A stretch of DNA of 64,000 nucleotides from Eledone cirrhosa. Taxonomy: Eukaryota. A program made the translations under genes and the position numbers. Shown here in pieces: positions 1 to 60,775 of the stretch. The notes beneath the pieces are model-generated. The model saw only the letters and a list, made by a program, of their open reading frames with translations, was not told the origin of the DNA and ran no database searches. The stretch covers positions 56,544,001 through 56,608,000 of the forward strand of contig OZ024745.1 in NCBI GenBank assembly GCA_964016885.1. The letters run 5' to 3'. The stretch's first letter is position 1. The number at the start of each line of letters is the position of its first letter.

Positions 1-899
1 CTAATGGATATTCTAATTAAATGGATCAGTTGCAGCGTACTTATGACACAATAGTTTGAAAGATATAATATAAATAGATAAGAGTGTCATTAATTATAAC
101 TTGACATCTAATTAATGAGTAAAATTTTCATTTAATGTTTAAGAAAGAGAAATAAGTTTAACGGATCAATTCATGTTTTAATACTTGGGAAAGAAACGTT
201 TTGCGTCTACCCAGTCGAAAGAAGCCTATTGTTACTGTGATATTGTTAATGACACATCAACATTCTAATGGCGATAATTAAATGTATTGTAAAATTTGAT
301 AAAATATTGATTTCAATGTGACGTTATATTTTAGCGTGTATGGAATTAGGAATATTAATATCTCAAGTATACTTAAACAAGAGAGTGAAAAAAATCCAAC
401 CAGAGGGATTAAGCCTTGTTGCACAACATACCATCACAATATCCATTAAATTACAAAGACCCTTCTATGAAGAAAATGAAGAAGATATTGATGATGTAAT
501 ATAATTATTTTAATAATTTAGTCTGAAGGAAAATATTACATTATAACGTATGACTTCAGAGATCAAAATGTTGTACGGGGTTTGTATTCACTTGGAGATT
601 TTCAGGTTGATGATCGATTTAAGTTAGGTAGAAGCAAACACATTCTACCAGGCCAACATCCTCGAGTAGTAGAGCCTGCTGTGTTGGTTAATGAAAACGT
701 TTCCAGACAGGAAAATATAAGTGAGTTGTGCGAGTCTGGCTAGATTTAATACAAGGGGAACAAGCTTCGAGAGTGATGGCCACAGGAGAAATGTTCGGAA
801 TGGCAAAGAAATTTGATAATAAGCTTATTCCAGTTTGGAGTTTATTGCTCACTGACTACATATCAGTAAGTTGAGTGGATTTCCATTGTAGACAAACAG

Positions 900-5202: not shown

Positions 5203-7009
<1,807 letters not shown>

Positions 7010-8343
7010 TAACAGTGCCAAAAGAGGATACATGACGAACGAGATCGCGCGAATCAAAAACAGATGCAGCGATCTCGCGAGTGGTGTCACTCATACGAAG
7101 CGATTCTTCGAGATGCTGGAGACGAACGGCTACCCTACCTCGCTCACAGACAGAGTAGGAGACACCAGACACTAGAAACAGAGAGGCACCCAAGGCAAGT
7201 GCTTCCTTAAAACGCCACACCTGCGCGAGAAAACCACCAACGCTATCCGCAATGCTATACGGAGGGAGAGCCTCGACATTCACCTGGCCCACTCGGGCCC
7301 CTCCCTGCGAAGATGCCTCTCCAGGAAACCCGGGTAATCAACTGATGCGTGCTCCCTCAGAGACTGCCCGATGCGCCATGCGAACTGTTGCCTACGCACA
7401 TACGTCGTGTATAAGATAGAATGTAACAAGTGCAACCAATACTATATAGGTAGAAGAATCCGGCCGTTGCACATCCGGATCAAGGAACACACTAACACCA
7501 GGGCCTCGTCTTTCCGGAAACACATAGCCAAATGCAGAAACAAAGACGGAAGGCCCATTGTCACAATTCTAGCGAAAGAAAGAAACGTCGGCATGTTACG
7601 TATCAAGGAAGCACTTTGGATGAAACGCATAGGGCCACAATTAAACAACCGATCCGAGAGAAGCGAAATGAGGTGGTTGGTTTAAGTTAATAAACGATGC
7701 AGCAACACACGCGCGCACACACACACACGGTAGCATTCCACCATACGAACATACTACACTGCCAATACAGAGGAACAAGGCAACAACACACGCACACACA
7801 TACTCAAGCGAGACAACAACACACGCACACACACACAGTAACATTCACTAAACAGGCAGTGAATGGACTGACAGCTAGCGCCACCCCACTCCCACAATTG
7901 AAAGAACTACTTCGGCCGCTAACATCTGCCTGACCGACCCCATTTCACGCGCACACGCGCTATGCTGAATACCTCAGATATTCAAAATAACGAACAACGG
8001 AGGACACGTTTCGCACCTTTCCGACAACCCCCCCACCCCGAAATAACCCCAGTTGATGGATGTGAGGATGTGAATCCGAAATATATAGGGACAATTAAAT
8101 CTCTCCCAAGGTAACTCTTTCTCGTGTTGTTATTTTTATTTTTATCCTTTACGCTCTTTCCTTCATTTCTCTACACGCTACAGTCTTATACACCCACGCA
8201 TATCAACGTACACCCAGTTACATCTCTCTCTTCACCACCGGATCTTGTTACCCGGAGATTTACCCATCTGCATTGTCGAGGCTTCCAAACGACTTAAAGA
8301 AATTTACCTTATTATTCCACAATGCGTCAAGAAAACTTCAATA

Positions 8344-28189: not shown

Positions 28190-28249
28190 GATATATATGA
28201 GATACGTAAAATAAGAAAATTATAAAATTAAGTTACTTATTAAAATATC

Positions 28250-28331
28250 ACTTCCAACTAATTAGTTTCTGGAATGGAGTAAATATATTTTCCGAAGAAG
28301 ATACAGAGAAACATTCCGTCGTCAGGGAAGT
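28250..28331 (-). ncRNA. Type I HHR with extended helix II
   Basis: acuucc-CUGACGA-c-ggaaug..cauucc-a-GAAAC-uaauua-GUU-ggaagu. Confidence 0.75.
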
Positions 28332-28772
28332 CTATTCTCATCTAAGTTTCAAGGCAAAGCGAGGACTCTGGAAACTTATTAAAAAATAATTCAGTGGATA
28401 GGAAATAGCAAAGCGTGGACTGAATTCCTAGCCATTGAGAAAATCACTGCCTCTGCGTCTGTGGCAAATTCAAAAAGAATCAAACACGTGACATCGAGGT
28501 CAATCAGTGGAAAGTGGTTTGCTAATAAGACAGCGGCCTTCCTACTACCATAGCAGAAGTCATGGCCAATATTGCTCGAAAAAATAATTTGGAGATAATT
28601 ATAAAGAATTAATATCTAGTAACATATATATACATACAGATGCATATCAATGCTAGCAAATATATAGGTTTTGTCTTAGTAACATTGTGGTTCAATGCAT
28701 GGGGTTGCAGAACAATAATATGAGAGACGTAAAATAAGAAAATTACAAAATTAACTTACTTACTAAAATATC

Positions 28773-28854
28773 ACTTCCAACTAATTAGTTTCAGGAATGG
28801 AGTAAATATATTTTCCGAAGAAGATATGGAGAAACATTCCGTCGTCAGGGAAGT
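28773..28854 (-). ncRNA. Type I HHR with extended helix II (second copy)
   Basis: Same fold, 523 bp from the first copy. Confidence 0.75.
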
Positions 28855-29022
28855 CTATTCTCATCTAAGTTTCCAAGCAAAGCGAGGACTCGGGAAACTT
28901 ATTAAAAAATAATTCAGTGGATAGGAAATAGCAAAGCGTGGACTGAATTCCTAGCCAATATATATTTGCTAGCATTGATATGCATCTGTATGTATATATA
29001 TGTTACTAGATATTAATTGTTT

Positions 29023-29123
<101 letters not shown>

Positions 29124-29140
29124 TATATACATATATATAT

Positions 29141-29194
29141 ATGTAAGTATGTATGTATACGTACATACATATATGTATACAGACGTACAGTAGC

Positions 29195-29237
<43 letters not shown>

Positions 29238-29381
29238 CAGGCACACATATATATATGCACGTATCAGTTTACCGAACATTTATTATAATGTTCGCTTTGT
29301 TCGTTTGGAAACAAACAAACAGCCTGATTTAGTAAGTGCCGTACTAAGAGTGAGAAATGAAATTTCGTTTCATTCTATTCC
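29141..29381. mobile_element. Short diverged insertion of the 466-bp monomer family with an internal inversion
   Basis: Starts atgtaagtatg like the array; after cagcctgattt it switches to agtaagtgcc..gaaatttcgtttcatt, matching the array's right end. Confidence 0.85.
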
Positions 29382-29493
<112 letters not shown>

Positions 29494-31727
29494 GAATTAT
29501 TCTCTTTTTGCCCGCACATAAATCTTAGCTCCTATTACTTTAGACCAATTAGCTAACGCTGTAGGACTTGCACCCCCCCCTCCTGTCAGGCCTACGTGAA
29601 ACCGCGCTACCCTGGTTCCTTGTTCCTCTGTAACCTTAACTACCCCTCAAGTGTATATGGGCTACTCTCATATTTCATTTCTCTTTTCCCCTCTCGCTTA
29701 CTTTTTTTCTTCCCCTCTTCCCTAGTTCATCTTATCACCACTAACCAATAACACATAGGATACAAACTGGTTAAGGCTTTTCACTATACCTACCACAGCT
29801 TCACCCTATGCAGGCACCTTCCCACACTAACCATAATGATACGGTTTATAAACGCACCCATTGTGCGCTAACTGATAGCACTGCCTCTTAGTCTGTCGAA
29901 AGCCCAACAAACTCCGCCGCATCTATAAAGTGGGTGGTTTGGGCAACCGGGGTCCGGATAGCCTTGACCCTAATATAGTATAGTGAAATAAGGGAGCAAA
30001 TCATGTGGGCTGGGTGCCCCAGAATCGATCAAGCCCCGGGGGAAGGGGTGGTTGGTCGCCGAGGGGTTTGAATCGAACAAATGACTTGCCTCAAGCGTCT
30101 CGTGGATATCTAATAAATCCGCCCTTTAAACGTGAATTGCCTCCCATACTTTTCATAAGCACACTACGACTTCCTGTGTTTATATTCTGACAACCGTTGT
30201 GTGTTACTAGCGAGAGGCTAACCTTTGGAATTTTGAAATTGCTGAATATGAATTGTGCTGCAAATATGATGAATGACAGAACCACACTCAAGGTAGTGTG
30301 CGGCAGTAGGTATTGACTTCCGGCCGACCCAGGAGGGGTCACACCCGACTGTGAATAGATTACAACCTCCGGATTCAGTAATCTACACGAAAACCACGTG
30401 GCGGATATGTAAATAACTTAGTTGTCATTGACAGTTTTAGCCGTGAGTTTTCTATATTTTCTACAGAAATGTGCACCCACTCTAATAAACCTGCTTATTA
30501 TTGTAACCACATCTGCTTTTCCTCCACTCTGCCATAGGTAATTCTGGAAGCGGAGTTCTCTGTACACACCTTCTGCTTGTGTGACGGAATAGTCATCACG
30601 ATTTACATTTGCAGCGGTATAATTGTATACGGTATGACAATTTGTTTCGATGCCGATTCGGCCTTTCAGTGAATTTCACTTGGGTAGTTGGGTTGACTTA
30701 CCGAACGTGAGGACTTTGGGAGATTGCAGTTATTGCGGACCTGTCGTATTTTCAATTTCCTCACTGGAGTGCCGGCTGTACTTATACCCCAGCTCTCTTC
30801 AACTCATCGTACTTTATTTTATCTTAGATTTAGGGGTTCATCGCTGACTGCCTATTCGGATGAATCCCCGGAGTATATGTTTTGGAAACATAGCGTTACT
30901 TCGCCTAACGACCGGAACTGGAACCAATGGATGTTGTACGTAAGATGCTGATAAGATACAGAGGATCGACCTATTACAAGGCGGTATAACCTTCCTACAG
31001 ACAATCCTACATGTAAAGCTGCACCAACTATGCTTCTCACAGACCCATGCTTGCAAGATCTTTTAATCTGTCTGTACATCCTGTATCTACGCTGCTTGTG
31101 CGTTGATGTATCTATGCCTTGATTTGTTTGTTTCTTTTGGTGTTTTCCTTCTGCGTTTTATATTGTTTTTTTATTTTTTTTATTGTTTTTGATCATGCTG
31201 AGTAACACCTTCACTCATTCCCTGCTATCCTCTCCCAACCTGCTTGTCATCTATTGCACCATGTAAATGATACATTTTTGATGTGATCTTTGATGTTATT
31301 TTTTATGCCATTTTTTATGACATTTTTTATGATATGTTATGACAGTATATGCGTCATGAATTGTGTCTGTTTCTATTTAGAGCTGACCTCAGGACCCCCC
31401 GTGCTGGCTCTTTAACCTTGTTCTGGTGACGCAGCTTGATGGGGCATGAAACTATTGATATACTCTAGTTTATAGGGTCTGATGATTCCTGCCTTAGGGT
31501 ACGGATGAAACACTGGGCACATTGATATATTTGTCAACAAAACTATATATATATATTGTTATACTTTGGGAGGGTCATGTTGCCAATAAGAAACACACGC
31601 ACCAGTTGCTTTCACTTCAATTTATTATATATTTATAAATTCATAAATTTACAAATCTACAAACTTATAAATTATAAATTTCTGGTTGGTTGGTTGGTTC
31701 CACAACCAGATAGTTGTTTATATATAT

Positions 31728-31772
31728 AGTCATAGTCCTTTCGTCACACACTCTGTGACCTCTTCAGTGACT
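31728..31772 (-). ncRNA. HHR motif (family B), left arm
   Basis: aguca-CUGAAGA-g-gucac/gugac-GAAA-gga-CUA-ugacu; one extra nucleotide before helix II. Confidence 0.6.
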
Positions 31773-31907
31773 GGGGATTCCTTTCTTCGTTTCTGTGCCT
31801 TTTCTTTCTTCTATCCTACGCCATTTTGTTTCTGTGTGACACACACAGAAACAAAATGGCGTAGGATAGAAGAAAGAAAAGGCACAGAAACGAAGAAAGG
31901 AATCCCC

Positions 31908-31952
31908 AGTCACTGAAGAGGTCACAGAGTGTGTGACGAAAGGACTATGACT
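31908..31952 (+). ncRNA. HHR motif (family B), right arm
   Basis: Mirror copy of 31728-31772. Confidence 0.6.
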
Positions 31953-32181
31953 ATATATATAAACAACTATCTGGTTGTGGAACCAACCAACCAACCAGAA
32001 ATTTATAATTTATAAGTTTGTAGATTTGTAAATTTATGAATTTATAAATATATAATAAATTGAAGTGAAAGCAACTGGTGCGTGTGTTTCTTATTGGCAA
32101 CATGACCCTCCCAAAGTATAACAATATCGGTTTCAACACACGATTTCAGATAAAGAATCTTGTTAAACAAATTCAGAAACG

Positions 32182-32244
<63 letters not shown>

Positions 32245-33801: not shown

Positions 33802-36872
<3,071 letters not shown>

Positions 36873-36874
<2 letters not shown>

Positions 36875-39800
36875 TAATTTTCATAAGGAAAGTATATACT
36901 TTCGAACGTTCAACTATCTGGCAGATGGGTAAACGGTGCTGATGATAGCTAACAAGCTTGAAACTAGTACATCGTTCCTGTGTCAGTGTTGAACAAAAAG
37001 GTGACGTGGTTGCCTTAACACCGTATGGCATAAATTCAGGCTGTTCAGTTTGTTTACAAACGAACAAAGCGACGTTAGCGCCGCTAAACTGATACGTGCA
37101 TATATGTATGTGTACCTGTATGCATATGTATGTATATATGTATATATATATATATATGTGCATGCTACTGTACGTCTGTATACATATATGTATGTACGTA
37201 TACATGCATACTTACATTTAAGTAAGTGCCATACTAAGAGTGAGAAATGAAATTTCGTTTTCATTTTGTTTCAATTTATCGTTTTCGGTATGCCTGACCG
37301 ATTTAACTCACTCAATATGCAAATTAGGCTGCTCAGCCGTTAATTTTCATAAGGAAAGTATATACTTTCGAACGTTCAACTATCTGGCAGATGGGTAAAC
37401 GGTGCTGATGATAGCTAACAAGCTTGAAACTAGTACATCGTTCCTGTGTCAGTGTTGAACAAAAAGGTGACGTGGTTGCCTTAACACCGTATGGCATAAA
37501 TTCAGGCTGTTCAGTTTGTTTACAAACGAACAAAGCGACGTTAGCGCCGCTAAACTGATACGTGCATATATGTATGTGTACCTGTATGCATATGTATGTA
37601 TATATGTATATATATATATATATGTGCATGCTACTGTACGTCTGTATACATATATGTATGTACGTATACATGCATACTTACATTTAAGTAAGTGCCATAC
37701 TAAGAGTGAGAAATGAAATTTCGTTTTCATTTTGTTTCAATTTATCGTTTTCGGTATGCCTGACCGATTTAACTCACTCAATATGCAAATTAGGCTGCTC
37801 AGCCGTTAATTTTCATAAGGAAAGTATATACTTTCGAACGTTCAACTATCTGGCAGATGGGTAAACGGTGCTGATGATAGCTAACAAGCTTGAAACTAGT
37901 ACATCGTTCCTGTGTCAGTGTTGAACAAAAAGGTGACGTGGTTGCCTTAACACCGTATGGCATAAATTCAGGCTGTTCAGTTTGTTTACAAACGAACAAA
38001 GCGACGTTAGCGCCGCTAAACTGATACGTGCATATATGTATGTGTACCTGTATGCATATGTATGTATATATGTATATATATATATATATGTGCATGCTAC
38101 TGTACGTCTGTATACATATATGTATGTACGTATACATGCATACTTACATTTAAGTAAGTGCCATACTAAGAGTGAGAAATGAAATTTCGTTTTCATTTTG
38201 TTTCAATTTATCGTTTTCGGTATGCCTGACCGATTTAACTCACTCAATATGCAAATTAGGCTGCTCAGCCGTTAATTTTCATAAGGAAAGTATATACTTT
38301 CGAACGTTCAACTATCTGGCAGATGGGTAAACGGTGCTGATGATAGCTAACAAGCTTGAAACTAGTACATCGTTCCTGTGTCAGTGTTGAACAAAAAGGT
38401 GACGTGGTTGCCTTAACACCGTATGGCATAAATTCAGGCTGTTCAGTTTGTTTACAAACGAACAAAGCGACGTTAGCGCCGCTAAACTGATACGTGCATA
38501 TATGTATGTGTACCTGTATGCATATGTATGTATATATGTATATATATATATATATGTGCATGCTACTGTACGTCTGTATACATATATGTATGTACGTATA
38601 CATGCATACTTACATTTAAGTAAGTGCCATACTAAGAGTGAGAAATGAAATTTCGTTTTCATTTTGTTTCAATTTATCGTTTTCGGTATGCCTGACCGAT
38701 TTAACTCACTCAATATGCAAATTAGGCTGCTCAGCCGTTAATTTTCATAAGGAAAGTATATACTTTCGAACGTTCAACTATCTGGCAGATGGGTAAACGG
38801 TGCTGATGATAGCTAACAAGCTTGAAACTAGTACATCGTTCCTGTGTCAGTGTTGAACAAAAAGGTGACGTGGTTGCCTTAACACCGTATGGCATAAATT
38901 CAGGCTGTTCAGTTTGTTTACAAACGAACAAAGCGACGTTAGCGCCGCTAAACTGATACGTGCATATATGTATGTGTACCTGTATGCATATGTATGTATA
39001 TATGTATATATATATATATATGTGCATGCTACTGTACGTCTGTATACATATATGTATGTACGTATACATGCATACTTACATTTAAGTAAGTGCCATACTA
39101 AGAGTGAGAAATGAAATTTCGTTTTCATTTTGTTTCAATTTATCGTTTTCGGTATGCCTGACCGATTTAACTCACTCAATATGCAAATTAGGCTGCTCAG
39201 CCGTTAATTTTCATAAGGAAAGTATATACTTTCGAACGTTCAACTATCTGGCAGATGGGTAAACGGTGCTGATGATAGCTAACAAGCTTGAAACTAGTAC
39301 ATCGTTCCTGTGTCAGTGTTGAACAAAAAGGTGACGTGGTTGCCTTAACACCGTATGGCATAAATTCAGGCTGTTCAGTTTGTTTACAAACGAACAAAGC
39401 GACGTTAGCGCCGCTAAACTGATACGTGCATATATGTATGTGTACCTGTATGCATATGTATGTATATATGTATATATATATATATATGTGCATGCTACTG
39501 TACGTCTGTATACATATATGTATGTACGTATACATGCATACTTACATTTAAGTAAGTGCCATACTAAGAGTGAGAAATGAAATTTCGTTTTCATTTTGTT
39601 TCAATTTATCGTTTTCGGTATGCCTGACCGATTTAACTCACTCAATATGCAAATTAGGCTGCTCAGCCGTTAATTTTCATAAGGAAAGTATATACTTTCG
39701 AACGTTCAACTATCTGGCAGATGGGTAAACGGTGCTGATGATAGCTAACAAGCTTGAAACTAGTACATCGTTCCTGTGTCAGTGTTGAACAAAAAGGTGA

Positions 39801-40537
39801 CGTGGTTGCCTTAACACCGTATGGCATAAATTCAGGCTGTTCAGTTTGTTTACAAACGAACAAAGCGACGTTAGCGCCGCTAAACTGATACGTGCATATA
39901 TGTATGTGTACCTGTATGCATATGTATGTATATATGTATATATATATATATATGTGCATGCTACTGTACGTCTGTATACATATATGTATGTACGTATACA
40001 TGCATACTTACATTTAAGTAAGTGCCATACTAAGAGTGAGAAATGAAATTTCGTTTTCATTTTGTTTCAATTTATCGTTTTCGGTATGCCTGACCGATTT
40101 AACTCACTCAATATGCAAATTAGGCTGCTCAGCCGTTAATTTTCATAAGGAAAGTATATACTTTCGAACGTTCAACTATCTGGCAGATGGGTAAACGGTG
40201 CTGATGATAGCTAACAAGCTTGAAACTAGTACATCGTTCCTGTGTCAGTGTTGAACAAAAAGGTGACGTGGTTGCCTTAACACCGTATGGCATAAATTCA
40301 GGCTGTTCAGTTTGTTTACAAACGAACAAAGCGACGTTAGCGCCGCTAAACTGATACGTGCATATATGTATGTGTACCTGTATGCATATGTATGTATATA
40401 TGTATATATATATATATATGTGCATGCTACTGTACGTCTGTATACATATATGTATGTACGTATACATGCATACTTACATTTAAGTAAGTGCCATACTAAG
40501 AGTGAGAAATGAAATTTCGTTTTCATTTTGTTTCAAT
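36873..40537 (+). repeat. Retrozyme-like tandem array, right (inverted) block: ~7.9 x 466 bp
   Basis: Reverse complement of the same monomer; GT microhomology at 36873-36874; ends in (TA)n. Confidence 0.95.
36932..36976 (+). ncRNA. Minimal type I HHR, first of 8 in the right block (also 37398, 37864, 38330, 38796, 39262, 39728, 40194)
   Basis: aacggtgCTGATGAtagctaacaagcttGAAACtaGTAcatcgtt; predicted cleavage after 36969. Confidence 0.85.
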
Positions 40538-40850
40538 ATATATATATATATATATATATATAGATATATATATATTCGTCAGGGCATTCTTCTATGAGTA
40601 AGCAACTCAGGAAACTGGGATAACTCCAATATAAATCCTGCGGCTCAGTAGTTACCGACGATGTTGATCTTTTCTTCTTTTCGGGTTATAGCTACTGTCG
40701 AGTGGGATTGGCTCAGTGCATAGACTTTCCTCACTTTAAAAAATATCTTCACACACAGGTATTGCACGATAGAATTAATTAATAATGGTATATCGTGCAA
40801 TGGCCATACTCGAGAACGAGGGGGCAGTCATCATATCATATATATATATA

Positions 40851-42314
<1,464 letters not shown>

Positions 42315-42461
42315 ATTAAAATACTGGAGCGTGTTGGAGTAAAACACCCTCTTCGTATTATAGAAATGACAGTAAAAGGTATAGCCCAATGTAATTAAAC
42401 AGAGCCGAAGAATTATGAAAATAAAACAAAGAAGCCTTCAATACATCAAAAGTCTTTATTA

Positions 42462-42499
42462 GCCAACAATGTTTCGTCCTATTAAGGACTCATCAGGGC
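42462..42499 (-). ncRNA. Minimal type I HHR
   Basis: gcc-CUGAUGA-guccu(uaau)aggac-GAAAC-auu-GUU-ggc, then AAUAAA. Confidence 0.8.
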
Positions 42500-43269
42500 A
42501 ATTAAAACAACAGGAAGTACTATCGGCCAATACAAGCCGAAAACTCCGAAGAATATGGAGTGTACATACACTAAAGTATTGCAATTCATATAGTGTTACA
42601 GAGTAGGTGAGACAAAAATATATGTTAACTTACATGCCATTATATATTATATATCATATATGTTATTATATTATTATTATAGTATTATTATGACATCTAT
42701 ATTGTTTGTGTAAATTAACCGTAGATTATCTATTATATTATAATATATAGTATATAATTATATAGTTTATTATATATTATATGTGTTACTTTTAATCATT
42801 TTATTACTTCATGTATATTAGATATACGTATTATTATTATTATTATTATTATTTTTATTCCTATCATGCTTATTTATATTTAAACTCTTAATAAGGTTTA
42901 ATTTGTGCTGTTAAAGATGGATATGTGTACTGATGTATGTGTATATGTGCGTACGTGTGCGTACATATATACATATGTATATTGTGCCTTCTAATTTTTA
43001 TTGTAATTTTAATATTGTTACAAGTATATTATATTATATTATATAGTATTATATATAATTCCCACTCTATATAACCACCTTTGTTTAGCTCTAGGTTTTT
43101 TTTGCTTTGGACTATATTTGTAATATGGTTCTAAATGTTATACACCTCCTTAGTGATTTTTATTATATATTTTTACTCATAATCCTGCAATACTTTAGTG
43201 TATGTACACTCCATATTCTTCGGAGTTTTCGGCTTGTATTGGCCGATAGTACTTCTTGTTGTTTTAATT

Positions 43270-43307
43270 GCCCTGATGAGTCCTTAATAGGACGAAATAT
43301 TGTTGGC
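43270..43307 (+). ncRNA. Minimal type I HHR (mirror copy, C15.2 to U)
   Basis: gccCTGATGAgtccttaataggacGAAAtattGTTggc. Confidence 0.75.
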
Positions 43308-43353
43308 TAATAAAGACTTTTGATGTATTGAAGGCTTCTTTGTTTTATTTTCA

Positions 43354-43413
<60 letters not shown>

Positions 43414-43827: not shown

Positions 43828-46785
43828 ATATTAAATAAATGGAAACTATATTTATAAAACCATATTTATTTCATTATACATATTTCAGGGATACCAAATT
43901 AAAATATGGTATGCCTTCATCAGACAAAATACAATATATAAACAGTTTTATAAATAATTTTGACGTACCCTATTAGATGCGACCATTATTTTTGGAAGCT
44001 GTCTGGATAGTGAGATGTTTATAATTATTTTACTAGTTATAGTGTTAAGCACAGTTAGAAAAAAGACGGAGAGAAAGAAAAATAACGGAGAGAGAGAAGG
44101 AGAGAGAAAAAGAAGGAGAGAGAGAAAAGGAATGTATGCAGAAAAAAAAGATATATATAAATAGATAGGAGGAAATGAAAGAAAGAAAAAAAAAGAAAGA
44201 AATAAGAAAGACAAAAGAAAGCAACAGAGAGATAATACTTCATCATACAGATAGAGAAACTCAAGAAAGAGGAAGTACTATATAGAGAGAGGAGGATATA
44301 GTGACGTCATGTCATATTAAGTTGAATTAACAATTCATATGAAATGAATAATAAAAATGTAAATATCAATATTCATGAATGAGACATAGATATATAATAT
44401 GAGAAAATAACATTGTTCAATAATGACCATATGTTTAGTTTAAAACCTTGAGGTCAATATACCAAAATCTGAGTTAAAACCTTAAAAAATACCCTATTTA
44501 TAAAAATATGGATACACATATGTATATATATAAACACTCATATGTGCGTCCAGAAAAAAGAGAAAATTATGTCTACTCCAGTCAATAATATAGACATACA
44601 AATGATTTCATTTGATCACTTCTATACATTTCTTGTGTTATAAACATTTCACAGTATATATACATAAAAACACGATTAATATTCATGTCCTCACATATAT
44701 GAACACCGTTCATGTATTTAATATTATGCATATCTGCAACACACATCAACATATACACACACAGCCATACATACACATACATATGTATAAATAAATATCT
44801 GCGTGAGTTTTCCAGCATCGTTATGCATATATACAGACATATATACGAACACATAAATAAACTCTATAAACCTTTTATATGCATGTTAATACACACAAAT
44901 GGCCTTTGTATAGAGATAATCAAATATCAATATATTAATACAGAAATATCAAAGCATTAAATATCTTTAACACACTATAGAGTATCTCAAGTTAAAATAA
45001 TATGTTTTATAAATTTATAGAAAACTATCCTACCTATATCTCAAACAAGATATTGCAAGGGTAGACATATGAAAGTTATTAGAAGCTATCAGAGTCAAAC
45101 AACAAATAAAAAAATAAAAATAATTTAAAAGATTTAGAAGACCCAGTGATTCTACGGATGCCCTTATATTTAGTATAGAAATTTATCTTACGCAAATTTT
45201 ATTTAATACATTGGGAGCATATACATTTTAGAGTAATTTATTATATCCTTGTTTATATTTAGGAAGAAAATTTAAAAAGAAAAAGGTGAAGGAATCTAAT
45301 GATTTATCGTCAGGTTTCATATATTAACTAAATTTTTTAATTAATTATACTACATTTTAAATTTATATTTATATTTAAACGTTGAGTTCAATCTATGTCT
45401 GCAGCAACTGAATAAATTGCTCCTTAAATTAAGGGAATTTTTGGACTTCAATATAAAGAATATTTCTTCTATACAAAGATCGCAACTCTCTGATGAGGAA
45501 TTAAAAGGAATTCCTTTTGAGACAATATTCCAAATCATCGAATATTTAACATTATCTCGTTTAAGGTGCCAGAGTAAGCTAGATAGCGAAGTTGAGGATT
45601 TTTTGTTTGGATCTGTGAAAGAATTCTTATGATTATTGAAGCGAAGTTTAAATTCTGTCGAGGTGGAACCAACATAGTTGAAAGAATTTAATTAAGTTTT
45701 AACATTACAATTGTACACTACATTTTTAGCTAAGCAGTTGTTATTTAACGGACAGTTAGATTTATTTCTACAGTTACAGTTATTTAATTGAATATTGTTT
45801 GGGTTATTATTGGTATTTTGGTTAGGTTTTAAATCCCTATTATTAATTCTGTTAATATTTTGTGCTAAATTTTTGGTGGACGAATAAGTTAATTTTATAG
45901 TGTGTCTATTAAAAATTGATTGATATTTATGTGTTCTAGGGAAGAGTTTGTCAAGAGCATTAAAGAATAGTTTAGCAATATGGGTTTTAATATTTAGTGA
46001 GAAAGAGGGGCAAACCATAATATATTTCTAGTACTATTTCTTTTTCGGCTTTTGGAATTATTGTAATGTTTTCTATTATAGTTGTTAAAGTTGTTACCGT
46101 AATTAAAATTGTTATTATTTTGGTTAGTTTGCTTATTATTATTGATGTATTTAATTTTATCTCTATATCCTGCTCTAGCTAACGCTTCATTGTAATACTG
46201 CGCTTTTTCATCAAAAATATTTTTATTAGATGAAATTCTTGAAATTCGTTCTTGAACAGAGTTCACTATAGTATTTTTAACAGATCTGGGGTGATTAGAG
46301 TTAAAATTGACATAATTCAAGTTCTCATTTAGTTTGTGAAATGGATAGTGAAGACATGTGTTGACATTTAGTGTTACATCCAGAAAATTGACTATTCTAT
46401 GGTTATTCTCTATTTCTATTTTTAGATTAAGGTAATTAAAAAATTGTATAATTTGTTTTCTTTTTCTATTTAGTTCACAGCTATTATTTTCAATAAGTAA
46501 AAGCATGTCATCACGATATAATCCTCCGGTTACACCTGGTATTTTTCTATGTAGCGAATTAATTATAAATAGGCCCACAAGGTCCGTTACCTGAGCTGAG
46601 TCAGATGATCCCATAGTTATGTCGAAATTATTATCTCTATCTGCCCTAGTCCATAGTTGGTTATTAAATTCTATCAATGTTTTCCTTACCGATAATATAA
46701 TGTGCATTTCATTGCTAGTTAGGTCGGTATGTTTAAATGCGTAATTTAGTGCCTTATTCAGTAGATTAGGAGTGATAGATGAATA
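43826..46785 (-). mobile_element. Naiad-type Penelope-like element, 5'-truncated, with a long 3' UTR ending in an HHR pseudo-LTR
   Basis: FDITMGSSDSAQVTDLVGL, LYRDD, NFLDVTL, SNHP, CNC..CPL..CL..VVY, YVGST..FKLRFNNH and CDLC..LNLRS..CRH; one frameshift (~46010) and one TAA (45692). Confidence 0.85.
43867..43931 (-). ncRNA. Minimal type I HHR of the Naiad pseudo-LTR
   Basis: uauuuugu-CUGAUGA-aggcauacca..ugguaucccu-GAAA-uaugu-AUA-augaaaua. Confidence 0.75.
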
Positions 46786-46794
46786 GTAGTAGTA

Positions 46795-46869
<75 letters not shown>

Positions 46870-46871
<2 letters not shown>

Positions 46872-48592
46872 GGAAGTGAGTTTTATTGTAGCACAATAAA
46901 GCAATGCAAATATCGGATAAGTAGCACTCTACAGTTTGTAGGACTGGAGTATAAATAATATAAGATCAAAAGATAGTTAAAAGAGTTCCAAGTATTTTAT
47001 TATGCGCATTACAAAAACAAATATCATCAGGGATGATATCTGGGTTTTCATCAGATAAAATAGGGATACATGATATGAAGCTTAAAAAAGAACTAACACG
47101 GCACTCTCAGTACTCATATGGTCTTTGAAATACAAAATATTAACTATAACATCTCTTGGAGAAAAGTTTGTTCTGCCTCTCTCTGCTTGAATGCCTCCCT
47201 ATCCCGAACATGTAATCTTTGCCTATCTGAAAAATTTACCATTATATCTAATATCAATTATATAATAAATAGACGCACTGATTTATTCTCTCTCTGCTTG
47301 CATAAACTCCACAGAACATTCCATAAAGTATACAGCTAATATCTAATACCTTACTAGTTTAAAATCCTTTTTCTCAAAGGCTTATATATCTTTTAAAAAT
47401 ATACCCATTTTTCTACCTTATTTCAATATTATTTATTATATATTATATAATACAAGTTACTCATTCTATATCATTCCTCTTTATCACTTTCCTTTCTTCC
47501 TCTTTTCTTTCTAATTTCTAACCTCTAATCTGTACTTTTTCTTCCTAACTACTTCTCAATTCTTATTATTACTCCCCACAACATTATCCATTCTTCCATC
47601 TTTCTTCATATCATTGGCCATAAAAAATATTAATGTTTTTAATACATTATAGTATTACCTTTAACAGTCCTTCGTAAACATTTTTTTTACGTTAGATTTT
47701 TCTTCCTTAAATTCCTTATCTCTTCCTTTCATGCTCGTTTGACTTTTACATATTACAATACATAAAAACAAACTTAAACCCTAACTAATTTCTTTTAATA
47801 TATTATATTATTACCATTAGAAAATATTTCGTAAACATATATATTTTTTTATGTTAGATATTTTCTTCCTTAAACATTCTTTTCTTCTTTGCTTTCTGCG
47901 TACTATTTACGTACATATATTACGCACACATATTACATTACATAAAAACAAATTTAAACACTAACTAATTCCTCTAAATTCATAACTCATTCATTCTTTT
48001 ACTTCTTTTCACATTATATCCTTAATCACATTAATATATTTATTTTAATAATACATATTAATAATTTCTTTCCCTCGCACATATTATTAAACCCTTCAAT
48101 ATACAAACCTTAATTTAATATTATTCTTAATCCCCTTTTCTCCTCATGCATAAACCTCATCAACTTTTAATTTCAAATTCTTTTAAATTATCTATTTCTT
48201 CCAACGCCTTTTTAACCTCTCTCTGTGAGACAATATATATTTTTTTCTCAGTTGTAAAAGCTATCTCTCCCCCTCTATCACCCATCTCTCCTCCTCTCTC
48301 ATCCTTCCTTCTTATACTCCTCCCCCACCATTCTTTACTCTAAACTCCTCCTCTTCCTTACCCTTTCCATCCCCCCCTCTCACTTGTTCCCAATCTTATT
48401 CATCAATCTTAAATTATTTTTCATATGTTGATTTAAAACTTCACTATTCACAAGTGTTTTTTAAGCTTCATATCATGTATCCCTATTTTATCTGATGAAA
48501 ACGCAGATATCATCCCATGATGATATTTGTTTTTGAAATGCGCATAATAAAATACTTGGAACTCTTTTAACCATCTTTTGATCTTATATTAT
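46870..48592 (+). mobile_element. Second Naiad-type PLE 3' fragment with an inverted pseudo-LTR
   Basis: ORF 47118-47339 has ISW..CNLCLSEK..INRRTDLFSLCLH; about 46957-47089 is inverted at about 48457-48590; the left HHR (46993-47062, -) has GAAA mutated to GUAA. Confidence 0.8.
48484..48554 (+). ncRNA. Minimal type I HHR
   Basis: tattttat-CTGATGA-(long stem cagatatcatc/gatgatatttg)-GAAA-tgcgc-ATA-ataaaata; 8-bp helix I; palindromic tgcgca. Confidence 0.85.
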
Positions 48593-51292: not shown

Positions 51293-51575
51293 ATTATTAA
51301 TGTCTGTACACACAATTGACCTCCTATTCAACTGAGGAATCATACAGATACATATATATTGACAACAGTTTCATGTTTACAGTGTGGAATGGATGCGACA
51401 TATATTATATTATACTATAATTGTACAATAATTCAAATTAAAATCAAAATTAAATTTAAATTTAAAAGCATTGGGTGGAATACATGGGACAATTAATACA
51501 AGAGAATAGTCTGATAACTAAATTAAATATATATATTAAATAAAATAAATATGTATATATATATATATATATTAG

Positions 51576-52188
51576 ATAGAAATGGCTTCTACAAGACTAG
51601 AACTGTTTCATTCGAAGGAAATCATCAGGAAAGCCGAGTGTCAATATGTCATGGTGGTATTCTTACATTTTCTGGTGGTAGGGAAAGGTGGTGATTGGCA
51701 TGGGTGGTCTTCCTTGTCTCGTGGATTTAAAGAATGGGGATTCTTTGAAAAAAACTATACATAGAGAAAAAATATATATGTATATATACATATGTGTGTG
51801 TGTGTGTTTGTGTGTGTATGTATGTATGTGTGTGTATGTGTTTGTGTGAGTGTGATTGTAAACACCTGACCATTTTGCAGGCTTTAATACAGTATGTTAA
51901 TGCACCAAACTGAATGAAAACTCTTTGATGAGAATATATGAACCTTGAAAATGAGGACTGACTGCAATTTTATCATTCTGTATCACTATGTATTTTTCTC
52001 CAAGTATAGTTTTCTCAAAGAATCCCCATTCTTTTAAAACCATTAGCCAATGACCTCCACCCATCCCAATCACCACCTCCCCCTACCACCATAAAATGTA
52101 TAAATACCACCATAACACATTGTCAATCGACTTTCCTGATGATTTCCTTCGAATGAAACAGTTCTAGTCCTGTAGAAGCCAATTCTAT
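51576..52188. mobile_element. Inverted-arm element (~190-bp arms) with outward-facing HHRs at 51584-51635 (-) and 52129-52180 (+)
   Basis: ctttc-CTGATGA-tttccttcgaat-GAAACag(ttctagtc)ct-GTA-gaagcc on the right arm and its mirror on the left. Confidence 0.75.
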
Positions 52189-52257
52189 ATAAAATATTTA
52201 TACGCTGCTATGTATTGTGTACCATACCTAGTGTGGTTACCCCCGATTGAACGCGGG

Positions 52258-53659: not shown

Positions 53660-56600
53660 TTTTCTTTATTAACCACAAGGGTTCACATAAAGTAGACATT
53701 AAGGACAGTACAGGACAATACAGGACGGTACAAATGGGCATTTCTGCGTGTAAAAAAAACAGAGGTTGAAATAAAATAACAAAGAAAAATTCCCCAATAG
53801 GGGGGAGACTTCCAAGGGACATTTGTGGAGAAAGCCCATTAAAAGACCACAGTGGCCCTGACCACCAGGGCAAGTGCCCTCTCCCAGTTTTCCACCTTTA
53901 ATTTACAGACACATACTCAGAGAAGGCCCATTCATTCGGGCCATACTTGCTTCTCTCACCCATCTTTCAACAAAATGCTGGGAAGAGAGCACTTCCCTCT
54001 CTACCCTGATTTTCCTTTTCAAATGAAATTTGAAAAAGTTAATCAGGGCATCACCGAAGAGGTAAGTACTCGTCTTCAGCCCTTTCAAACGTGTCCACCA
54101 TACTATCTCTTTCGCCATGGCCACCAGACAGATAAAAACTGCCTGCCCTTCCCAGCTAAAGGAAGGGGGCGGGGCAATCCTCACGATGGACTCAGCTGAT
54201 AGCTGGATCCGTCCTACACGTGACAGCAGGTGTTCGACATAAACCCACAAGTCAGCAATGCTCGGACACTGGACGAGTGCGTGCAGGACGGTTTCGTCGC
54301 CCTGCGCGCATCTCGGACATGCCCAGCTGACGGCACCTCCATGCCTGTAGAGTTTAACCCGAACTGGCAAAGCTCCTCGGTAGCACTGCCAGGCCAGGGA
54401 TTTCTGGAAGTTGTCCATAGGCCCCGGCCCGAAAGTCCTTCCGAAGAGATTGGCTAGTTGAATTTCGTCGACGCCTAGAGTTTCTCCAAGTACGTCGTCG
54501 CTCTTCCCCTCCACTAATCCCCTATAGAACGCCAAGGTGGAGTTTCCACCGATCACATTGCCCGATTGGTCGAGGGCTGTGAGCGCCTGAAGACATTCCA
54601 GTCTCCAAGCGCTCCCTCTCGGTCTTCGCTTGACCCAGGACTGCAGCTCCGTCAAGGAGACGAGCTGGGGAAAAACGTGTCTAGCAAACGGCGACCACAC
54701 CTGATCACCGTCGAGGAAGAGGTGGAGATGTCGTAGCCTGAGCGCGTGTCTGCGCATCATCAGCCACGGCATGCCCAGCCCTCCACGTAGCGGGTGTTGA
54801 CAGCAGATGGACCGCCTGACCATCGGAGCGCGTCCCTTCCACAAGAAGCGAAAGAGCAAACGCTCCAGCGCAGTCAGGCGGGGCTTAGGACAAGGTACGA
54901 CGGTCAGGCGGTAGTAGATGACGGACGCGATGTACGCGTTAGCCACCTCCGCTCGACCTTTCAGGGATAGCTTCCTCTCGGCCCATTTCTGGGTGAGAGA
55001 AGCTACCCTGCTCGTCACCTCGTCCCAGTTTGTGTCCGTCTGGAGGTCTGGACCGAACCAGACCCCTAGCAATTTAACCGGTCCGTCCGTCCAGCGCCCG
55101 ACGACGCTGTTGGATGGCATGGACCTGCCTCTCCAGGTGCCGAGCTGCAGGCCCACTGACTTTTCCTGGTTGATCATTGCTCCTGTCACCGCTTCGTATT
55201 CTCTTAGTGTAGTGCCGATCGCCTCGATGTGTTTGGCGTTCGAGACCACTACGGTGACATCGTCGGCATATGCTGACACGGATCTTCCGCATCCTAGTTC
55301 GCGCGGGACCCCCTTCAACGTCTCCAGTTTGTGCAGTAATGGCTCGAGAGTCAATACGTACAATAGGGACGAGAGGGGACATCATTGGCGGACCGAGCAG
55401 CATGATGTTGACCGGTTCCGAAAGGTGACCGTTCACTCTCACTACAGAGCAGATGTCGCTGTGCATGGCAGCTATCCAGCCTCTGAAGACAGGTCCAAAG
55501 CCAGCCGCCCTCAGGACTGCCGCTAGGTAACGATGGTCGACCCTATCGAAGGCTTTCGACTGATCTAAATTGATCAAAGACCCACCCGTTCCAGGTTCCC
55601 TAGTTACCCTCTCTACGATGTATCGCATGAGGTGGAGGTTGTCGTGGATGGATCTGTCGGGAATGTCGCATGTCTGTGCCTCTCCCACCAGACCACCAAC
55701 GACAAGCGCCAACCTCTTTGCTAGCACCTTGGCCAAAATCTTGAACTCTGTGTTTAGCAGAGTTATGGGCCGGAAATTATCTATGTTATCCCTCTTGTTC
55801 GGATCCTTTCTCAGCAGCGCCACCGCTCCTCGGCTCACAGAGCTGGGAATTCTCCCGTTCTGTTGCCAGTTGCAGTAGACGTCCGCCAAGAGGCCTCCGA
55901 ACAAGTCTGGCATTTGTACGTAAAGTTCATAGGGCAGACCATCCACACCAGGCGATTTACCCCTTGTGCAACTAGTCATTGCATCCCGTACTTCAGCGGT
56001 TGTTATCGGTTTTTCGCAACACTCCGCCTCAGTGGCCGAAAGCCGCGGCAGTCCGTCGAGGTAGACACTAAAGTCAATCCCCCGATCCGGTCCGCCACTG
56101 CCCCCGAACAGTTGAGCGAAGTGTCGCTGAAAAGCTTCACACATTTGCCCGGGATCGAGTAGCATGCGCCCGTGGTGGTCCACCAAAGACCGGATCGTGG
56201 CTTTGTTGCCACGACGCGCCTCCGCCACTCGGGCCCATTGAACGGCTTTCGTCCCCTCGTGTCTGAGAGCACGCACCCTAGCTCTGACGACGCAGCCTTC
56301 GTGCTTTGCATTGAAGAATTGGTCAAGGGCCAATTTCGCCGCAAGTACGTCGGTCGCGATGCCTTTGCTAAGCGCCTCATCTAATTTTCTAACTAATTCT
56401 CCCTCTGCTCTATTTTTCTCTATTGCTAAAGTCTTACTAAACCTAATGAACTCTATTCTAATTGCTCTTTTCAGAGCAAACCACCAATTGTTGTTGACGA
56501 TGGCGCCCGTCAACGCCCGCTTAACTAGTTCTCTAATCCGGTCTCTGTAGGCCTTGCGCGCTGGTAAGGACGCGTTTAGCTTCCAGTAGCCGGGTCCTCG

Positions 56601-57750
56601 TCTATGAAGCCTATCTAAGTCAAGCACACAGATCACGAATGTGTGGTCCGTGTAGCTGACTATCTTGAATTGTGGACAGCCTATGCTAGACCTATCTATT
56701 TCCCTACAAAATACTCTATCTAGATATGATCTGGATGACCCTATGCGATTTGTCCAAGTCCACATTGGTACATTCGGGAAATCCATTCGGTACCTGTCAG
56801 ACAGTTCAAAACGTCTGAGCAGGTTGGTGAGACTCTTGCACCCTCCTTCCCTATCCACTAATCCCACACAATCCCAGCGTGCATCCACTAACACTAAAGA
56901 GCGGGACGTTCCAAGAAAGGTCTCTAGACGCCGGAAGAAATCAGGCCGCCCTGCTCCTGTCGGGGCATAGACGGCCACTAACCTGAAAGCTTGCCCGTCT
57001 CCGCTGGTCACGTCCAGCACCACCAACTTACCTTCTGGGTCCAGGAAGATGGCCCGTATGGCAAGATCCAAACTTCTCCGAAAAAGCACAGCAACTCTTC
57101 CCCCCGATCCCGGACGGCTGGGAGATGCGTACACATCGTAGCCGCCGAAGATCGGTGCGAAAGCCTGTGCTTCGGAGATTCTGGTCTCGCTGATGGCCAC
57201 TACATCTATGTTTAGTGACCTGAGGTCGTTGAGCAGGTGGCCCTGCTTCCATGACGACCCCAAGCCACGCGCATTTATGCTGCCTATTCTGAGTGAGGTC
57301 ATGTTGAAAAGGAGTGGAAAAGATGGGAAAGACCACTTACCTCACTTCTCGTAGGGGAAGGACGGTTTTTCGATCCTTTTCACTGCTTGTGGCCTCCTCA
57401 GGAAGGATGTCCTTATAAATCCTCCTGGAGAGTGCTTGTCGGAAGTCTCCGATGTCTTTGGGGATTTCTTTTTTTAGTGTCATGTACGTTTTCTGTGTGA
57501 TGCGAGTGATTTGTATGTGTGGAGGTGCTGTGAATTTTGGGGTTGTTGTGTAGTCTTTTTCTGTGATGCTGGTGTTGTGTTGGATGTAGTGTAATAATTG
57601 CTTGTTGTTCAAATTTAATGCTGTGTAGTGTGTATCGTTTTGGTTGTTTTGTTTTGTTTGCGTTTGTTGTGGGTTTGTTTCTGTTTCGCATTTTGGTGAC
57701 TTTTGTGGTGTAGGTGATGGTGGTGTTGGGGTTAATGATGGTGATCGTGT
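53660..57750 (-). mobile_element. Tx1-clade non-LTR retrotransposon: ORF1 3' part, ORF2 and 3' UTR
   Basis: ORF2 domains as below; AATAAA at 53670-53665 followed by an (ATT)n tail (53602-53658). Confidence 0.9.
53903..57302 (-). pseudogene. Tx1 ORF2 (APE endonuclease, RT, zf-RVT) with one frameshift near 55400
   Basis: SINARGL..ISETR, VYAPT, LDRVF, TDH, WKLN, KSPGVDGL, FRPITLLN, DQSKAFDRVDH, AYADD and CPRC..ETVLHALVQC; the QGCPLSP motif is disrupted at the frameshift. Confidence 0.9.
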
Positions 57751-57904
57751 TGGTGTTTGGATGCTTGTCGGAAATTCTGGTTTCGCTGACTGGAGTCATA
57801 TCCATATTTAGTGGTCTGAGGTCGTTCAGCAGGCGTCAGCAGGACGAAACCAGGCAACGAATATTCAAGCATCCTACTCTTTTGATGGCCATGTTGGCAG
57901 GATA

Positions 57905-59340
57905 GAAGATAACCTGAAACTCTTGCGATATATCATAAAGAGGGTAGGGTGTAAAACTGGCTTCGGTGCGGCTCCTATTAATTTAGCTGAAACGAAAGAG
58001 AATAGGTTCCACCATCAATACTCGAAGGCTGTCCTGAAGGCAGTTGGTTTCGTTACCGTCTTCAGAGGTTGGATTGCTGCAATGGACAATGGCATATTTT
58101 CATTGATCAAAGTTAATGGCTATTTTTCGGAACCGTTTCAGGTCTCCCGGTCGGGCCATCAGTTGTGTTCTCTCTCTTCCATTCTGTACGTGTTGACTCT
58201 CGAGCCATTACTGCGAAAGCTGGAGCAATTGTAGGAATTCCACTGGAAACGGGACGGCACCTACTTGGAGGAATATGAAAGGTTGACTAAACCCGGAAAA
58301 GCCGATTGACTTGCAGCGCTGTACATGGAGAGGCAAGTCCATGCTGCCCAACAGCGTCGTCGGTCGCTGAACAGATGGACCAGTAAAGTTGCTCGGGGTT
58401 TATTTCGGACCAGGCTTCCAGGTGGATAACAATTGAGACACGGTTACGATCAAGGGGCCACTCTCACACAGAAATTGGCCGAGAGGAAGCTGTTTCAGAA
58501 AGTTCGGGTGGTGGTAGCGAAAGCGTATATCGCGTCCGTTATCTACTATTGCCTGGCCTTCCTGCTTTGCCCCCGTTCTGGCCTCGCGACACTGGAGTGG
58601 CTCCTCTTCAATCTCTTGTGGAGGAGACAGGTTCCGTTAGTGAGGTGGTCAATCTGCGGTCAGCACCCTGGATACACGGCGTACTGGGTATGCCATGGCC
58701 AATGATGCGCAAACATGCGCTGCGGCTGCAGTATCTCCAGATATTCTGCCTAAACGATACACAGGTGTGGTCACCGTTTGTGAAACATGCCTTTCCGCAG
58801 CTCATCTATTTGACTGGGTGCCTGGCATCTGGAATGATGTAAGCCGCTCACTGCCCTCTACCAGTTCGACAATGCGGTAAGTGGAACTTTCCATCTCGAG
58901 TTCTCTAGAGGATTGTGCTGGGAAAGTTCGACAACGCACTCAGAGAGGCTCTGAGCATCGATGAAGTTGAATTGACCAGTCTGTTCCGGAGAATTATAGA
59001 GTGGGGGACAACGGATAACTTCCTGAAATCCCTTCGTTGGCAGTGTTGCCGCGGGTCACTACCATTTAAAGATAAACTCTATAGGCGCGAACGGGCTGTC
59101 ACATGGACCTGTCTATGATGCGCGATGAGCGATGAAAGAGTTCTGCGCACACTCCTCCAGTGTACGTGCATTACTCACCTGTGAAGCTATGTCGAACAGC
59201 GGTTGTCGCCAGTAAGAAGGTTCCTGCTGTCGACCGAGTCCATAGTGAATATCGCCCCTCTGCCTGGTGGTGGTAGCGAAAGAGTTTGTGTGGTGGACCA
59301 GGTCGAGAGGACTGAAGTCACGCTTTTTCAAGTTTCATTT
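57905..59340 (+). mobile_element. Older decayed Tx1 ORF2 fragment (RT C-terminal region)
   Basis: LYVLTLEPLLRKLE, AYIASVIYY and LGMPWPMMRKHALRL in broken frames. Confidence 0.8.
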
Positions 59341-59394
59341 GTTATATTTTCTTGTTAATGTTATTATCTTTATATTGTTTACTCGATTTTTTTG

Positions 59395-60775
59395 TGTAAA
59401 AAAACCTGCAGTCCCCGTCACCATCACCACCACAAGCACCACCGCCAACAACAACCACACCTCCACCATCATCACCAAAAACACCAACAATGCAAACAAA
59501 ACAAAACACACACACCAAACAAAAACAAGAAGAAAACAGCAACAAAATCCCCCCTCCCCCCAAAAAAGTACGCAGCCATAAACATGACAAATAAAGAACT
59601 CATACAATATATAAAGCAGTACACAGAAATCACAGAAAAAAACTACTACACCCAACCAACACCAAGAATTCTACCGACAAACATAAGCATCATTGATATC
59701 AAAATAGAACAGTACAAACATTTAAAACAAAAATTCCCCAACGTAGTTGGAGACTTCAGAGGGTCAGTTACCAAGAGGATATACACTGACATCCTCTTGG
59801 AAACCCCCATGACCAGTCAAAGAGACGGTTCTACTGTCCCTTCACCACACCACGATCAAGGTAAGTGACCCTGTCTCACTTGCCCCGTTACTCATCCAAC
59901 ATGGCCGTACTTAGAATAGGCAGTATAAATGCACGTGGCCTAAGGTCATCTTGGAAGCAGGGTCATCTGCTCAATGACCTCAGGTCACTAAACATAGATG
60001 TGGTGGCCATCAGCGAGACCAGAATCTCCGAAGCACGAGCCTCGCACCGATCTTCGGCGGCTACGATGTATACGCATCTCCCAGCCATCCAGGATCGGGG
60101 GGAGGGGTTGCCCTCCTTTTTTCGGAGAGGCTTGGATCTTGCCATACGGGCCATCTTCCTGGACTCAGAAGGTAAGTCGGTCGTGCTGGACGTGATCGGC
60201 AGCGAAGGCAATGCCTTCAGGCTAGTAGCCGTCTACGCCCCAACTGGGGCAGGACGGCCAGATTTCTTCAGACGTCTAGAGACCTTTCTTGGAACGTCCC
60301 GCTCTTTAGTGTTAGTGGGCGACTGGAACGGTATCTTGGATGCACGCTGGGATTGTGTGGGGCTAGTGGATAGGGGAGGAGGGTGCAAGAGCCTCACCAA
60401 CTGCTCAGACGTTTTGAACTGTCTGACAGGTATCGACTTTATCACCCGAATGTGCCAATGTGGACATGGACAAACCCCATCGGGTCATCCAGATCCTATC
60501 TCGATAGGGTATTCTGCAGAGAACTAGATAATGCTAGTATAAGTTGTCCACAATTTAAAATAGTCGACTACACAGACCACAATTTTGTGATCTGTGAGAT
60601 CGACATAGACAGACTTCATAGACAAGGACCCGGTTACTGGAAGCTGAACGCGTCTTTCCCGGCGCGTAAAGCCTACAGAGCCCGGATTATCGTATTAGTT
60701 AAGTGGGCGCTGACGGGTTCGGTCGTGAACAATAGGTGGTGGTTCGCCCTGAAAAGGGCAATTAGAGTAGAGTCC
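59395..60775 (+). mobile_element. Tx1 copy: ORF1 end plus ORF2 endonuclease, 3'-interrupted
   Basis: MAVLRIGSINARGL at 59901; homology to the - strand copy stops after ALKRAIRVE. Confidence 0.85.

Follow-up and report, generated by a model that had tools for sequence, protein, structure and literature searches.

A short two-armed retrozyme copy between (TA)n tracts in Eledone cirrhosa and its probable origin by Penelope-like priming on both target strands

The closest described relatives of the elements studied here are the metazoan non-LTR retrozymes. According to the parts of two accounts used here (PMC7229834; bioRxiv 10.64898/2026.07.22.740005), these are non-coding tandem repeats with one type I hammerhead in each unit, a low GC content, a high copy number and a co-occurrence with Penelope-like elements (PLEs); an axolotl family has a U.U mismatch at the base of stem II. 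Mobilisation of retrozymes by PLEs has been proposed, not shown. Concerning the PLEs themselves, insertions with an inverted pLTR are described (parts of PMC3846280 and PMC8557442) as having a head-to-head inverted, 5'-truncated arm, partial tandems, a one-ended tail of 30-40 nt, (TA)n targets (Naiads) and a repeat-borne hammerhead. The formation of the inverted ends and of the one-sided tail is an open question (PMC8557442; PMC11167929, as far as the parts used here go). In the main text of Frangieh 2024 (PMC11167929), a PLE protein, modelled as a dimer, nicks and extends both strands, and two internal RNA starts bound the tail; inverted arms and retrozymes are not treated in that text.

The family described below shares all of the retrozyme traits listed above. 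It is set beside the known retrozymes by its sequence; its cleavage, circles and expression are putative. Its unit measures about 415-526 nt over several subfamilies (389 nt in one deleted unit), against 170-400 nt (Cervera, PMC7229834) and 51-972 nt (Li, 10.64898/2026.07.22.740005) in the portions of those papers considered. Local amplification after insertion was suggested by Li et al. 2026 (10.64898/2026.07.22.740005, same portions), whereas the arrays here look inserted ready-made. Word searches of the main texts of PMC7229834 and 10.64898/2026.07.22.740005 did not bring up insertions with two inverted arms, ends at fixed points or a tail. The listed traits of PLE insertions (PMC3846280, PMC8557442) are all found in the present family as well; unlike PLEs, it has no ORF, and its tail is about 55-59 nt long. 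Also, in contrast to the PLE accounts, the pairing of the ends is counted here, which argues against self-priming as the main route. Based on the main text of PMC11167929, the Poseidon element PAc in vitro is alike in the use of both strands, the AT-rich target, the two starts that bound the tail and the start in a stem-loop, and the anole PLE in vitro has no strand difference in start site, whereas here one strand takes site A and the other site B nearly without exception.

A dispersed hammerhead family and its short copy

The window analysed (64,000 nt of contig OZ024745.1, assembly GCA_964016885.1, positions 56,544,001 to 56,608,000 of the forward strand) is rich in (TA)n. It contains an array of 466-nt units with two opposed arms at 34060-40541 and, 4.7 kb from it, a short copy of 241 bases at 29141-29381. 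Table 1 presents the features of both; monomer positions are counted from window position 36873, which is position 1 of the array monomer. The 13 whole non-TA blocks that were scored across both arms of the array are identical. In the array, the tail arm continues beyond site A, and the inversion point is at another position. No stop-free frame of at least 150 aa is present in the array or the short copy, save a low-complexity frame which enters from the microsatellite.

Table 1. Features of the window that are relevant to the short copy, the array and the PLEs
Feature	Position in window	Strand	Remarks
PLE-like copies with GIY-YIG ORFs	5606-8026, 40724-41941		Pfam PF01541, E 1e-5 and 3e-4
(TA)n target tract, left of short copy	29022..29140	.	
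Short copy, A arm	29141..29331	-	monomer ~159-345; 3' end (site A) outward into left TA tract; without hammerhead
Short copy, B arm	29329..29381	+	tail only, monomer 346/349 to ~400; 3' end (site B) toward right TA tract
(TA)n target tract, right of short copy	29382..29491	.	
Array, A arm	34060..36874	-	6.0 units (466 nt each); site A (348) at the outer end, near 330 at the inner end
Array, B arm	36873..40541	+	7.9 units; inner end position 1, outer end site B (~403)
Type I hammerhead motif, one per unit	36933..36975	+	predicted cut after 36969 (monomer 97)
Predicted hairpin, loop holding site A (~37217-37220)	37209..37226	+	consensus fold
Tail between sites A and B	37221..37279	+	about 55-59 nt; site B in predicted unpaired linker
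PLE family fragment	45994-46965	-	also at locus L322; 43,442 first-look candidates; near-full ORFs, up to 816 aa

Fourteen hammerhead cores are found in the array. The predicted ribozyme consists of a 6-bp stem I, the core, a 4-bp stem II closed by a U.U mismatch and a minimal palindromic stem III, and its pattern recurs in 41 of the 43 distinct monomers taken from other loci, where variants of stem I keep their pairing. The match to the Rfam model Hammerhead_HH9 is weak (18.5 bits, E 0.15, under the gathering score of 52), and the other Rfam matches, mostly to miRNA models on the TA-rich part, are also below threshold; folding of the isolated hammerhead did not recover the ribozyme structure (z -0.68, not significant). 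Family copies were located by exact-motif pattern searches of the species' own 3.0-Gb genome, in which two family motifs gave 21,363 and 30,814 exact matches and the reversed controls 0. The preliminary description had proposed a dispersed retroelement and not a local satellite or an assembly error, and these counts bear it out. Since the monomer carries a type I hammerhead, and the units are tandem, non-coding, dispersed and of high copy number, the family is, judged by its sequence, a non-LTR retrozyme.

The short copy is a head-to-head pair of an antisense and a sense arm set in (TA)n. Alignment with the array monomer places window 29138-29331 antisense on 348 to 161 (85% identity) and window 29328-29383 sense on 346 to 401 (89% identity). 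Read base by base, the left end is monomer 345 and the right end ~400, near the ends of the array (348 and ~403), as had been noticed earlier. The start of the right arm falls on 349, where 1 nt is common to both arms, or on 346 when a loss of 1 nt is allowed for. The two arms thus abut on the monomer within 0-3 nt, and the statement that the right arm starts where the inverted left arm ends holds at this resolution.

Looking at each arm separately, the non-TA part of the left arm shares 72 of 76 nt with the monomer of locus L079, and 57 of 60 aligned columns of the right arm agree with that of L081; both matches are better than those to the array monomer. The short copy is of an older subfamily than the 466-nt array, and its divergence from the array is for the most part a difference between subfamilies. 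Because both arms are closer to the L079/L081 subfamily than to the array, the copy is an independent insertion, which the preliminary description had concluded from divergence alone. It is extremely improbable that it represents a deleted or recombined fragment of the neighbouring array, or an assembly error: its closeness to the array, its place between long TA tracts which are hard to assemble, and the finding that none of the public contigs of four of the six listed runs bridges the junction, though both arms are covered, would fit such an origin, whereas the different subfamilies, the tens of thousands of dispersed family matches and the recurrence of the same ends and geometry at many loci with differing junctions oppose it.

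Fixed outer ends and their pairing

The outer ends of the family are fixed at two sites ~55 bases apart, site A (345-348) and site B (401-407). A mixed-age sample, made up of 104 merged loci and the window, has 136 TA-flanked 3' ends, and 130 of them fall on one of the two sites (55 on A, 75 on B), in agreement with the fixed priming sites proposed before. Mapping of ends and inversion points on other copies was the check suggested with that proposal, and it returned dispersed copies with fixed, not random, outer ends. The 63 head-to-head pairs of this sample include 42 A/B pairs, one scored as A/A and 20 with a non-standard end. In the young subfamily of the array, exact ends running directly into TA number 1,018 for B and 264 for A, two counts which are not comparable, the A-end motif being narrower than the B-end motif.

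The first 100 places of the 1,018, all on one contig and of a subfamily younger than the short copy, formed a B-anchored sample, of which 97 were resolved (L154 and L281 were dropped for assembly gaps and L286 for lying off the fetched stretch). The inverted partner ends at A in 75 of these insertions (four with tiny or complex arms, called by eye) and at B in one (L209); it is absent in 17 and off the stretch in four. An independent set of 20 A-anchored places on another contig (C2) has a B partner in 17 cases, two of which look like mutual duplicates; two partners are off the stretch, one ends elsewhere and none at A. The junction table of the young insertions was curated by hand, and positions within 222-335 are approximate.

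This pairing bears on dual priming, by which the same PLE-type machinery would act at the same sites with each strand copying an RNA of its own. Two free molecules should often yield A/A or B/B insertions, whereas only 1 of 76 resolved partners is B. Also, the arms of one insertion differ less from each other than insertions do, with a mean of 0.94 differences per 350-nt block between arms (23 insertions) and 2.77 between insertions, a closeness that two RNAs of one source locus would likewise have.

Concerning the surroundings of the sites, the stem of the predicted hairpin at site A is nearly invariant, so covariation lends it no support. A twin-hairpin rule for both sites finds no support here: short hairpins are located 3' of both A and B, but their offsets differ, and the consensus fold has A in a loop and B in a linker. 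Pure TA of at least 8 nt is found at the outer end of the partner in 75 of 88 two-armed insertions, with a median pure run of 23-24 nt. An interrupted TA motif is common to both flanks in 11 of the 88, against 0.87 in shuffled flanks; seven of ten such cases inspected lie in periodic tracts, and L218, L244 and L285 look informative as to a target-site duplication (about 16-33 nt). Very long periodic tracts of interrupted TA flank the young insertions L231, L237, L258, L113 and L102, where the TA target may have expanded during or after insertion.

Other hammerhead-bearing elements were also observed in the window. A second family forms a perfect 286-nt head-to-head pair in TA at 31553-32185, with a right arm 58 nt longer and a two-site layout as in the family of the short copy; this pair is nested within another hammerhead-bearing element (core at 31479). 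Further head-to-head hammerhead pairs are found at 42311-43357, where the left arm is ~105 nt longer, and at 51570-52190, where the pair is old and diverged. Beside the short copy, another hammerhead family is represented at 28200-28435 and 28668-28957, with roughly 50 nt between the 3' ends of the two copies; the latter occupies the TA centre of a palindromic element (arms ~28608-28668 and 28958-29020).

Inner junctions and the first-pass stop at site A

With a second primer at A on the same RNA, a B-primed cDNA would be expected to stop there on its first pass. The inner end of the B arm lies within 341-358 on the first pass in 14 of 95 insertions, against 1.6 expected from the background rate (Poisson P 2e-9), and on later passes in 2/53, 1/32 and 0/20 (3/105 in total). 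The window 341-358 was chosen post hoc; the site had been foretold in the preliminary description, and the P value tolerates a scan of all windows. The 14 young insertions repeat the geometry of the short copy with differing junction points, and at least four more of the 75 B arms of the mixed-age sample are tail-only by eye (L001, L015, L066, L075). The short copy is typical of a real minority of insertions, those in which the B arm stops at site A. In the remaining ~85% the B arm runs past site A, and most inversion points of the family lie elsewhere. The likeness to twin priming that had been pointed out is therefore upheld by the excess of such copies and limited by the abutting geometry being that of a minority (~15%).

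The comparison with L1 in the same proposal needs a similar division. In the parts of Meyer 2010 (PMC2837659) used here, L1 twin priming likewise gives two inverted fragments by an internal second priming, with microhomology at the junction. Unlike L1, which is primed at poly(A) and at a variable inner site, the present insertions have no poly(A) tail and ends fixed at A and B; the first arm usually passes the inner site, often by several units, and the target is (TA)n (PMC2837659, same parts). The geometry thus stands, and the other traits suggest Penelope-like elements instead.

An A arm is missing from three of the 14 insertions whose B arm stops at A (L161, L213, L290), a share like the overall one (17/97), so that a retained second cDNA is not needed for the stop. 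A hairpin or a bound protein at A would likewise stop the first pass only, since later passes copy RNA which is already paired with cDNA. Under dual priming, such a roadblock would account for the stop, and several observations agree with this: the read-through of A by most B arms, the stopped arms without an A arm, the position of site A in a predicted hairpin loop, and a smaller first-pass cluster at a palindrome (308-318, 5 of 43 first-pass stops). Also, twin and dual priming could not be separated for L1 in the parts of Meyer 2010 (PMC2837659) considered. Given the pairing of A with B, we regard dual priming as unlikely and prefer the copying of one RNA from both sites.

Beyond the first pass, ~60% of the B arms survive each extra unit (at risk 53, 32 and 20) and arm lengths exceed 6.8 kb, as would be expected of a processive enzyme on a circle or a long multimer. 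The inner ends of the A arms cluster 3' of the predicted cut (15/107 at 98-117, scan P 0.009, on first as well as later passes), and those of the B arms have no cluster there (4/97). This suggests that the A enzyme leads, meeting the predicted cut end or the folded ribozyme, in which case part of the templates may be linear. A arms ending at their own start after a whole turn are not significantly in excess (6/107 in 341-358, ~4 expected). B arms end at 382-384 in 5 of 54 later passes, a figure to which the first pass is not comparable, the anchor motif excluding such ends. Inner ends at exactly 361, an artefact of the library boundary, were left out.

The two arms are joined with microhomology. 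An overlap of at least 2 nt is found in 42 of the 56 junctions with 0-16 nt overlap, against 17% of simulated blunt joins; BLAST may slightly inflate this overlap, and 15 further junctions contain filler or an unresolved overlap. The junctions also bear on self-priming, which was proposed for Penelope (Arkhipova 2013; in the parts of PMC3846280 used here): a strand would fold back at a palindrome and copy itself into the inverted arm. In some insertions (L148, L222, L273, L275) the junction does lie on a palindrome, and the two arms meet there at one and the same monomer position. Same-position junctions are not significantly enriched, however (11/105 within 15 nt, permutation P 0.11), and the two fixed outer ends are left unexplained by fold-back. 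The arms of the short copy have no monomer sequence in common, like those of L141, L201, L218 and L279, so neither arm was copied from the other. Copies like 29141-29381 thus exclude fold-back for their own origin; for the family it is highly improbable and survives only as an end-joining route in a minority of insertions.

Some junctions have features of their own. In L203, L144 and L161 an arm carries short reiterated repeats at one of its ends, inner or outer, close to site A, suggesting repeated slippage or re-priming. In L213, L142 and L233 no TA separates the B arm from other sequence at its inner junction. The adjoining piece in L213 is antisense and similar to another of the window's hammerhead families; L142 and L233 have a similar unrelated piece in common. 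These three insertions may be chimeras primed on two different RNAs.

Candidate machinery and mode of priming

The PLE family represented at 45994-46965 has many copies with a hammerhead core antisense to the ORF, near its 5' end. By motif likeness it may belong to the Neptune clade; Pfam gave no match for this family. The PLE-like copy at 5606-8026 forms an inverted pair. A non-LTR retrotransposon with APE endonuclease and RT is represented by several fragments, in both orientations, at 53903-63257. A partner was sought with one PLE RT of the window as query, and its 30 best loci were compared with the monomer: they carry a hammerhead of their own and no informative match to the monomer, so that no autonomous partner was found in the one PLE family tested. 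RT fragments next to copies of the family were rejected as partners, as they look like neighbours in shared TA tracts.

The hammerhead, the (TA)n target, the inverted arm and the one-sided tail make it likely that the machinery is Penelope-like rather than that of L1, and the known PLE footprint combined with the two-strand priming of a PLE in vitro leads to two-ended priming at A and B. We consider it probable that the short copy is a separately inserted retrozyme consisting of the tail plus one arm, for which a Penelope-like RT/endonuclease primed from the two cut strands of the (TA)n tract, probably on a single RNA. Either as a circle or as a multimer cut by the ribozyme, this RNA would be bound at its tail by the PLE protein, probably a dimer, and both strands of the TA tract would be nicked. 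Priming at B would then start from one 3'-OH and priming at A from the other, on 1-2 nt of base pairing in either case. In ~15% of events the B-primed cDNA would stop at the primer or protein on A, giving a copy like 29141-29381; otherwise it would read through A and might run over many units. Finally, the two cDNA ends would be joined via a few bases of microhomology or filler. Against this reading stand the single B/B insertion (L209), the read-through by ~85% of B arms, which twin priming of the L1 style does not predict, the negative outcome of the partner search in the one PLE family tested, and the anole PLE, whose start site in vitro does not differ between strands, unlike the strictly asymmetric pairing seen here.

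More tentatively, and with rather less confidence than in its doubt, we can envisage a PLE dimer that sits asymmetrically on one retrozyme RNA circle, with an A and a B subunit, and primes both DNA ends simultaneously, so that twin priming would be normal for PLEs. The trailing B enzyme would hit the A complex about once in seven events and would otherwise run on behind it around the circle, with strand displacement.

Both the class of element and the PLE footprint have been described before. What the present analysis adds is the stop at site A on the first pass only, with the caveats given above. The literature covered, which takes in few subscription papers and some sources only in part, yielded no prior description of twin priming in PLEs or retrozymes. 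In this family the reaction is recorded in about a thousand young insertions, and the pairing of A with B and the first-pass stop are countable predictions for an existing in vitro assay. If true, twin priming by a dimer would alone explain the inverted pLTR, the one-sided tail and the ready-made satellite arrays.
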